IMG/VR virus record: IMGVR_UViG_2877982868_000014
Strand: one strand, 5' to 3'
Origin: a virus
Lineage: Duplodnaviria; Heunggongvirae; Uroviricota; Caudoviricetes
Length of the DNA: 64,000 bases
Shown: positions 47,977 to 48,518 of the stretch, piece by piece
How the letters are laid out: every line of letters begins with the position of its first letter
Numbering within the stretch: the stretch's first letter is position 1
Made by a program: the position numbers and the translations under genes
The notes under the pieces: model-generated
What the model saw: only the letters and a program-made list of their open reading frames with translations
The model's database searches: none
What the model was told of the DNA's origin: nothing

Positions 47977-48044
47977 ATGGCGCTTTACACAATTGGTGAA
48001 GTGGCGTTGCTTTGTGATATTAACCCTGTCACGTTACGCGCGTG
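47977..48044 (+). pseudogene. mlrA: mlrA (yehV) 5' fragment, 22 codons, truncated by prophage integration
   Basis: MALYTIGEVALLCDINPVTLRA then TGA created at the junction. Confidence 0.75.
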
Positions 48045-48203
48045 ACGCAACATTTTTAAAAATCGACGAAGATCGTCCAGGAGCGCCGTTTTTCAAGGGT
48101 TGGATAGATGATTCGTTTACCATGTCGATGAACTTCGACGAATTTCGCCGATAAAAAGTGTCCCATACATGCCCCATTGATGCCCCATAAACAATATCAG
48201 GAA

Positions 48204-48254
48204 TTGACACTGGTTATCCATACAGATAAAAATAACACCTGTACATAACTACAG
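48204..48254 (+). promoter_or_regulatory. Promoter with LexA (SOS) box upstream of dinI-like gene
   Basis: TTGACA at 48204..48209; CTGT-N8-ACAG (CTGTACATAACTACAG) at 48239..48254. Confidence 0.6.
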
Positions 48255-48269
48255 TTACAGGAGGGTGTT

Positions 48270-48518
48270 ATGCGTGTTGAGATCTGTATCGCTAAAGAAA
48301 AAATCACTAAAATGCCAAACGGTGCTGTGGATGCGTTAAAGGAAGAATTAACCCGACGCATCAGTAAACGTTATGACGATGTAGAGGTGATCGTAAAAGC
48401 CACCAGCAACGATGGCCTTTCTGTTACGCGCACCGCCGATAAAGATTCAGCTAAAACTTTTGTTCAGGAGACGCTGAAAGATACCTGGGAGTCTGCTGAC
48501 GAGTGGTTTGTTCGCTAA
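48270..48518 (+). CDS. DinI-family SOS protein (prophage-borne)
   Basis: [12 protein letters not shown]...[10 protein letters not shown] resembles DinI (...ETWESADDWF). Confidence 0.8.

Follow-up and report, generated by a model that had tools for sequence, protein, structure and literature searches.

The int-distal end of an Sp15-type lambdoid prophage in mlrA, and its dinI-like cassette with two predicted LexA operators

The window analyzed here, i.e., the whole stretch of 64,000 nucleotides, contains the junction at which a lambdoid prophage of the Sp15/CP-933V/VT1-Sakai type enters the E. coli gene mlrA (yehV), and this junction is the int-distal end of the prophage, the equivalent of lambda attR. 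Taking the pieces together, we are confident that the region is best explained as an Sp15-type attR-like junction in mlrA followed by a phage att arm and a dinI-like cassette under predicted LexA control. The junction orients the window, as it places an O157:H7-type chromosome on one side and the int-distal end of the prophage on the other.

On the chromosomal side, the neighbor of mlrA is the histidine kinase gene btsS (yehU), at 46070-47755 on the minus strand (mapped from the Sakai annotation and the ORF list), which is divergent from mlrA. The mlrA ATG is at 47977, and an ungapped comparison with K-12 MG1655 showed identity from 300 bp upstream of that ATG through 48044, interrupted by just 4 single-base differences, one of which is a silent SNP within mlrA at 48024. 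From 48045 onward, identity to K-12 mlrA is at chance level, and the reference alignment has no mlrA homology past that base. The initial annotation, which had mlrA reading normally for 22 codons and giving way to phage sequence at about 48045, was therefore accurate, as the K-12 alignment breaks after 48044. At the junction a TGA is formed (48043-48045) where K-12 has TGG (Trp23), and the remnant mlrA' (yehV'; 47977-48045, plus strand) encodes a 22-residue stub, MALYTIGEVALLCDINPVTLRA, that is the first part of a MerR-type helix-turn-helix (a partial match to the Pfam MerR HTH family, consistent with the K-12 alignment and the translations). GenBank record AP000400, which describes VT1-Sakai, labels the same bases as 'truncated protein of E. 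coli K12 YehV'. The phage insertion interrupts MlrA inside its MerR-type helix-turn-helix, and the integration site is a 20-bp core within mlrA codons 17-22. Site-specific recombination by a tyrosine integrase would have put the phage into this core, so that the 22-codon stub would keep the promoter side, while the remaining mlrA would lie about 48 kb off, beside int and without a promoter. The consequences for the host are established biology: with a prophage inserted in its proximal part, mlrA is not expressed, and the formation of curli and biofilm is limited, in 53 of 55 O157:H7 strains (PMC3874044), i.e., the prophage inactivates mlrA and curli and biofilm are suppressed in nearly all O157:H7 strains.

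The identity of the prophage could be established by comparison with complete genomes. A 1,201-bp query spanning the junction (47700-48900) matched 195 complete E. coli genomes at 100% identity, including those of O157:H7 strains Sakai, EDL933, EC4115, TW14359 and 86-24, and the lambdoid junction inside mlrA that had been proposed initially, with CP-933V/Sp15-type prophages named as the comparison to make, is thus the Sp15/CP-933V junction of Sakai and EDL933. In the Sakai annotation, "prophage Sp15, lambda-like phage" begins at the base equivalent to 48046. The whole of Sp15 is 47.9 kb and its order is tail, head, lysis, stx1AB, Q, nin, O and P, cro and cI, N, recombination, xis, int, and the mlrA remainder. 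In Sakai, stx1AB are mid-prophage and int, xis and the mlrA remainder are found at the opposite end, which makes the junction in the window the int-distal one; Sakai, strain 611 and 86-24 all have that other mlrA junction, with int and xis. The initial annotation had placed the rest of the prophage beyond the window, which is right for the remainder past the window's end, but about 16 kb of it (48045-64000, minus strand) falls within the window and comprises the tail genes and some of the head genes. Its first genes, mapped from the Sakai and AP000400 annotations and the ORFs and all on the minus strand, are a tail-fibre C-terminal-domain gene (48886-49155), the tail fibre (49157-50470), lom (50535-51134) and J (51202 to about 54674). 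Over 16 kb the prophage part has 98.9% identity to Sakai Sp15, with the differences clustered in lom, J and other tail genes, and J is uninterrupted in the window and frameshifted in Sakai and strain 611. No exact match to the window was found among complete genomes, the best over the prophage part being strain 611 at 99.3%, and the junction of a Mu-like prophage at 39314 was absent from every complete genome compared.

The initial annotation had named mlrA (yehV) as the site of the Stx1 prophage in O157:H7. The gene is documented as the Stx1a phage site, occupied in 96.5% of 346 O157 strains, although most stx1a-negative O157 strains have truncated non-Stx phages in yehV (PMC8309913). Searches by tblastn for relatives of Stx1A and Stx1B within the 64-kb window found none (best E = 1.2), in keeping with the earlier remark that the window has no toxin genes. 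It is a real possibility, if on balance a doubtful one, that the prophage is no Stx1 phage at all but a truncated toxin-less remnant, or a phage with another stx that shares this end. In its favor is strain 86-24, whose junction is identical over the 1,201-bp query and whose first 16 kb are the same at 99.1% identity, yet whose prophage is a 28-kb remnant, deleted from cro to a capsid gene and without O, P, Q, stx1, lysis genes and terminase; the window ends about 0.3 kb before the 86-24 deletion point, and the truncated phages of the stx1a-negative strains are a further precedent. Against this, stx1a is present in the corresponding prophage of strain 611, which at 99.3% is the nearest complete genome over the prophage part, and also in that of Sakai and of EDL933. 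Since an identical junction is found on the stx1-deleted 86-24 remnant and non-Stx phages occupy yehV, the window is uninformative on stx1: it is compatible with either a stx1-carrying prophage or a stx1-deleted remnant and cannot decide between them. This matter touches toxin content only, and the nature of the junction is not in dispute.

The att core, CCTGTCACGTTACGCGCGTG (48025-48044), is identical in K-12 attB, in the window junction and in the int-side junction, and it is the same 20 bp that AP000400 records as misc_recomb 8051-8070; when the int-side junction of Sakai was compared, the stretch shared by the two prophage junctions came to 21 bp, from 48024. Together with the first two phage bases, the core holds an inverted repeat, GTCACG-N7-CGTGAC (48028-48046), which a pattern scan also calls a weak terminator-like hairpin. 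In the reconstructed attP core the repeat is perfect (GTCACG-TTACGCG-CGTGAC), and in K-12 attB its right arm is imperfect (CGTGGC). For lambda-type integrases, two core-type sites are expected around a 7-bp overlap region and, by analogy, the two halves of this repeat are probably core-type Int sites flanking a 7-bp overlap. Beyond the core, the int-distal phage att arm (48045-48203) corresponds to the P arm of lambda attR, and it recurs in phage Stx2_EH1846, where the core next to it is related but not the same. Within the arm are three tandem repeats on the plus strand, GTCCCATACA, TGCCCCATTGA and TGCCCCATAA (48156-48190), with a period of about 10-11 bp, and the int-side arm holds a near-identical AAGTGTCCCATGTATGCCCCATAA repeat. 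The octamer TGCCCCAT has only 3 copies in the 49.5-kb Sp15 locus, all of them within the two att arms. Judging from this distribution, the repeats at 48156-48190 and the int-side copy are probably arm-type Int binding sites.

The first phage gene, at 48270-48518 on the plus strand, encodes a protein of 82 aa (ECs_2939, H0001, WP_001261937.1), and a Shine-Dalgarno sequence, AGGAGG (48259-48264), ends 5 nt before its ATG and provides a strong ribosome-binding site. Its recognition as a DinI homolog in the initial annotation was fully borne out, as the product matches Pfam DinI (PF06183) with 70.8 bits (cut-off 24.2) over profile positions 1-63 of 63, and matches the E. coli DinI structure 1GHH with E = 1e-12. 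It is 45% identical to K-12 DinI. Its score of 71.6 bits falls under the NCBIfam NF007893 DinI equivalog threshold (111 bits), and the protein is therefore a DinI paralogue, in line with its RefSeq name of "DinI-like family protein". The C-terminal acidic helix is conserved as WESAD(D/E)WF (the K-12 counterpart is ETWESADDWF) and, by analogy with DinI, the protein would bind RecA filaments via this helix.

The gene is preceded by a sigma-70-type promoter on the plus strand (48204-48233), with a -35 of TTGACA (48204-48209) and a -10 of AAAAAT (48228-48233), i.e., 10 of 12 hexamer matches and an 18-nt spacer. A TTGACA and a canonical CTGT-N8-ACAG LexA box had been reported ahead of the gene, and both are there, at 48204-48209 and 48239-48254. 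The single box first described turned out to be one of two, since a second LexA-like box lies at 48210-48225. The canonical box, box 2 (ACCTGTACATAACTACAGTT, 48237-48256), ends 13 nt before the ATG, and its 16-bp palindrome, CTGTACATAACTACAG, occupies 48239-48254, starting 4 nt after the -10, where it likely covers the transcription start of the dinI-like gene, predicted at about 48240. Box 1 (CACTGGTTATCCATACAGAT, 48208-48227) has the form CTGG-N8-ACAG, with 13 of 20 consensus matches, and its 16-bp part, CTGGTTATCCATACAG (48210-48225), sits inside the promoter spacer, between the -35 and the -10. The equivalent of box 1 is a perfect CTGT-N8-ACAG in most paralogues.

By itself the CTGT-N8-ACAG pattern is not rare in the window, with 5 copies against 0.72 expected, but only that at 48239-48254 has an A+T-rich spacer and a promoter location. 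The LexA box scoring that had been suggested was done with a log-odds matrix, which stood in for the Lewis heterology index and was built from 25 E. coli operators, with only the dinI operator verified against K-12, and its figures are accordingly approximate. With that matrix, box 2 was the best site in the 64 kb (about 18.6 bits, with 0.03 such sites expected per 64 kb) and box 1 the second best (about 15.6 bits, 0.07 expected), both inside the range of the training operators themselves (8.1-28.7 bits, leave-one-out). In addition, among 55 related viral loci with upstream sequence, the order of -35, box 1, a gap of 12-13 nt, box 2 and ATG was kept in all 55, and the CTG and CAG arms were likewise invariant in 55 of 55, with variation confined to the box spacers. 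These loci are close relatives (proteins 94-100% identical), with part of the conservation being plain low divergence, and the constancy of the operator arms is therefore supportive, short of decisive. In K-12, the dinI operator, ACCTGTATAAATAACCAGTA, is in the analogous position.

Based on the sequence, position and conservation of the operators, and on experiments with the dinI homologues of the Gifsy prophages, we infer that the dinI-like gene is under LexA/SOS control. Each of the dinI homologues of Gifsy-1, -2 and -3 has a LexA box, and mitomycin C leads to accumulation of the DinI homologue of Gifsy-2, an induction that was lost when its LexA-box region was replaced (PMC3121763); nalidixic acid induces the three Gifsy dinI homologues 4.6- to 23-fold (PMC8072944). 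It is highly improbable that the box matches are fortuitous and the gene a silent or constitutive passenger. Such a view could point to the departure of box 1 from the canonical CTGT and to the ease with which palindrome-like matches arise in A+T-rich promoter regions. The literature searched for expression of ECs2939 or Z3305 gave only a PCR-primer mention, and the mitomycin C array of Sakai left out probes for repeated phage genes such as the dinI-like copies. The view of fortuitous matches would have to accept, however, that the top two sites of 64 kb fell by chance 29 bp apart and exactly over the spacer and the start of one promoter, that their arms stayed invariant while the box spacers varied over 55 loci in three contexts, and that homologous genes in the Gifsy prophages have been shown to be LexA-controlled (PMC3121763, PMC8072944).

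The three contexts also revealed the limits of the unit. Three kinds of sequence, unrelated to one another, precede the gene in the 55 loci, namely the att arm seen in the window, a terminator, and the 3' end of an integrase-like gene, and homology among the loci starts exactly at the -35. A match starting at 48203 or 48204 was found in 1,877 of 5,426 complete E. coli genomes (35%), with up to 8 copies of the cassette per complete genome. At the other end, homology among the copies stops at about 48589-48621, some 100 nt past the dinI stop, at a hairpin. Because homology begins at a shared -35 and ends at a terminator, the stretch from 48204 to about 48620 is, on the evidence of these alignments, best described as a self-contained promoter-operator-gene-terminator cassette. 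In the paralogues the terminator at this place is clear (CCGCAGCACG...CGTGTCTGCGG then TTTTTCTTTTT), and in the window it is a degenerate intrinsic terminator on the plus strand (48587-48636), in which a weak hairpin, folding at only -9.1 kcal/mol (z = -0.83), is followed by a U-rich tract and closes the dinI cassette. A strong intrinsic terminator right after dinI was rejected for this copy, there being only the weak hairpin.

Past the terminator is a non-coding or degenerate spacer (48637-48842), with no family match and not conserved with the cassette. AP000400 annotates an ORF, H0002 (48675-48875, 66 aa), in this vicinity, which we rejected as a gene: it matches no family in Pfam or NCBIfam, its conservation does not follow that of the cassette, and it is found in only a minority of related loci, and RefSeq makes no H0002 call. 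In related phages, the effector gene nleC is inserted on the opposite strand at the equivalent of 48810/48811. An Rfam scan of 44000-52000 at E <= 1 gave three sub-threshold chance matches only and no known RNA family. The spacer is followed by a strong hairpin, CACAAAAACCGGAGCCGGACTCCGGTTTTGTG (48843-48874; -28.1 kcal/mol, z = -4.3, with 0 of 200 shuffles as good), which the folding model suggests is likely a bidirectional terminator that separates the dinI unit from the tail-fibre genes converging on it.

What follows the gene also bears on whether it heads an operon of the Gifsy type, in which LexA would control a downstream antirepressor that induces the prophage. The idea has a precedent, in that the gene after the LexA-controlled dinI homologue of the Gifsy prophages is gfoA or gftA, an antirepressor gene that induction requires and the one of biological importance there (PMC3121763), and AP000400 had proposed that the promoter also serves H0002. 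We nonetheless give it almost no credence, as cassette homology stops about 100 nt past the dinI stop, at a terminator, H0002 has the poor credentials described above, and relatives have the unrelated nleC, on the opposite strand, in this very spacer. Furthermore, the Sp15 repressor is of the CI type (RefSeq 'LexA family protein'), i.e., of the self-cleavage kind that needs no antirepressor. A Gifsy-type dinI-antirepressor operon was thus rejected, there being no conserved ORF or family match downstream of dinI.

The preferred reading, of a LexA-controlled single-gene cassette, suggests a simple mode of operation. In an undamaged cell, LexA dimers on both boxes would occlude the dinI-like promoter. 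DNA damage would lead to the formation of a RecA filament, self-cleavage of LexA and expression of the dinI-like gene, and the DinI-like protein would in turn bind RecA filaments and modulate their co-protease activity, conceivably to the benefit of phage or host. [quoted passage not shown] A more adventurous proposal, and frankly a long shot, is that the several near-identical cassette copies per O157 genome together modulate RecA filaments at a time set by the SOS response and in this way tune how co-resident Stx prophages are induced, and that the nearness of the putative Int arm sites (48156-48190) to the -35 (48204) could couple excision complexes to dinI transcription. In strain TW14313, deletion of a toxin-less yehV prophage resulted in stx2a expression 8.6-fold lower after mitomycin C (PMC8309913), and if the proposal were true, the copies could contribute to that drop.

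Much of this locus was known: the junction and the dinI-like gene are annotated in GenBank and are a target for PCR typing. AP000400, whose coordinates map to the window as record + 39974, already marks yehV' (47977-48045), the attachment site (48025-48044), a 'putative promoter of H0001 and H0002' (48204-48232), a 'LexA protein, putative SOS box' (48237-48256) and H0001 as 'DNA-damage-inducible protein I' (48270-48518). The yehV site marks Stx1a phages or their remnants and its junction is therefore a routine typing target. In the multiplex PCR for the yehV junction, primers A and E are at 47999-48018 and 48680-48700, which fits the stated product of 702 bp (PMC3874044), and a later assay has a primer in ECs2939 (PMC8309913), the complement of which is at 48307-48328. 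Box 1 is mentioned neither in AP000400 nor in the initial annotation. The additions made here, i.e., the second LexA-like operator, the limits of the cassette and the probable core and arm sites of Int, are modest and inferential; small as they are and unsurprising to specialists, they could refine annotation and guide studies of the promoter or of integration.

The closest known systems are Sp15 (VT1-Sakai, AP000400) and CP-933V, which show no difference from the window in junction, core, arm, promoter, SOS box or dinI-like gene. The tail-gene order is also the same, although the prophage part of the window is just 98.9% identical to Sakai. In lambdoid phages, the 'morons' described by Hendrix and colleagues are autonomous promoter-gene-terminator units, and the cassette resembles them in that one gene, placed between the tail-fibre genes and att, has a promoter and a terminator to itself, and in occurring in unrelated flanking contexts. 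It differs in that the terminator of this copy is weak and that a host-benefit phenotype for the cassette is not established.

K-12 dinI, a member of the SOS regulon (1GHH), has the same fold family, the conserved acidic helix and a LexA operator just upstream of the RBS. It has a single annotated operator, however, versus two for the gene in the window, which is also on a mobile cassette, unlike the chromosomal dinI of K-12. In the Gifsy-1, -2 and -3 prophages, too, a LexA box immediately precedes a dinI homologue, and theirs is experimentally SOS-induced (PMC3121763). In Gifsy an antirepressor comes after dinI, whereas neither an antirepressor nor irsA follows the gene in the window, and the Gifsy dinI is downstream of replication genes, whereas the dinI-like gene here is at the int-distal end beside the tail fibres. 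A further difference from Gifsy is that Sp15 has a cleavable, CI-type repressor.

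The mlrA junction itself may carry a further element: a pattern scan flagged a terminator-like sequence on the plus strand at 48027-48057, made up of the inverted repeat of the att core followed by CAACATTTTT. This predicted terminator, if it works at all, would curb transcription that starts at the mlrA promoter and runs on through the phage arm to dinI. The other junction, on the int side, lies outside the window and is present in the loci of strain 611 (L005) and strain 86-24 (L087, a remnant with stx1 deleted). In both, the RefSeq annotation has a protein of 233 aa named "HTH-type transcriptional regulator MlrA" (L005 48243-48944; L087 20734-21435), whose start is a non-canonical ATT codon within phage DNA (ISLPLIPVTLRAW...), so that the 16 residues with which the helix-turn-helix begins are replaced. 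Given that loss of mlrA function has been published, the entry probably reflects an artefact of annotation and not a hybrid protein that works.

The dinI cassette, i.e., the promoter, LexA boxes, dinI-like gene and terminator, is most commonly found in the context seen in L030, one of the related viral loci compared around the dinI-like gene, and in similar viral loci. There it lies directly 3' of the end of a tyrosine-recombinase-like ORF (...GHRSLNVLWQVYTELYPKSLHNRFEELQKSRNKTS*), which is located about 230 nt upstream of the dinI-like gene and whose stop codon overlaps the cassette -35 TTGACA. The cassette is therefore at the int end in prophages of the L030 type, as opposed to the tail-fibre end. 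Beyond the cassette, at the position equivalent to 48810/48811, related Stx2a phages have 1.4 kb of inserted DNA that includes nleC, a type III effector gene, and another relative has an nleG-type gene in the region around it, whereas the window prophage has only a degenerate spacer at this point.

The left part of the window, 1-39314, is a Mu-like prophage and not the Sakai backbone. Its minus strand encodes a MuA-like transposase (35808-37898) and a MuB-like ATPase (34804-35736). The prophage also has a repressor-like ORF (38332-38943) and genes for the tail sheath, portal and tape measure, and its end is within yehM, at about 39309-39314. Prophages 99.9% identical to it are present in the O157:H7 strains Z1813 and Z852, and none of the complete genomes of the collection searched has it at the yehM site; an unmatched insertion site is what one would expect of a phage that transposes. 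Within this prophage is a 679-aa ORF (2113-4152, minus strand) with 78% DNA identity to the large DUF6645 gene of Sp15, which is immediately downstream of stx1, and the Mu-like element thus carries a gene of the type found in Stx-phage late regions.

Sakai has the same insertion as the window of IS629 (IS1203, IS3 family) in the 3' end of yehQ (42895-44205). Differences between the window and Sakai are clustered: they form patches at 50500-51500, 53500-54500 and 56000-58000, within lom, J and other tail genes, a pattern that suggests recombination with other resident lambdoid prophages. The tail-tip gene J (51202-54726, minus strand) is a single unbroken ORF in the window, but in Sakai and strain 611 one base is missing at the equivalent of 53566, and J is annotated as frameshifted or split.
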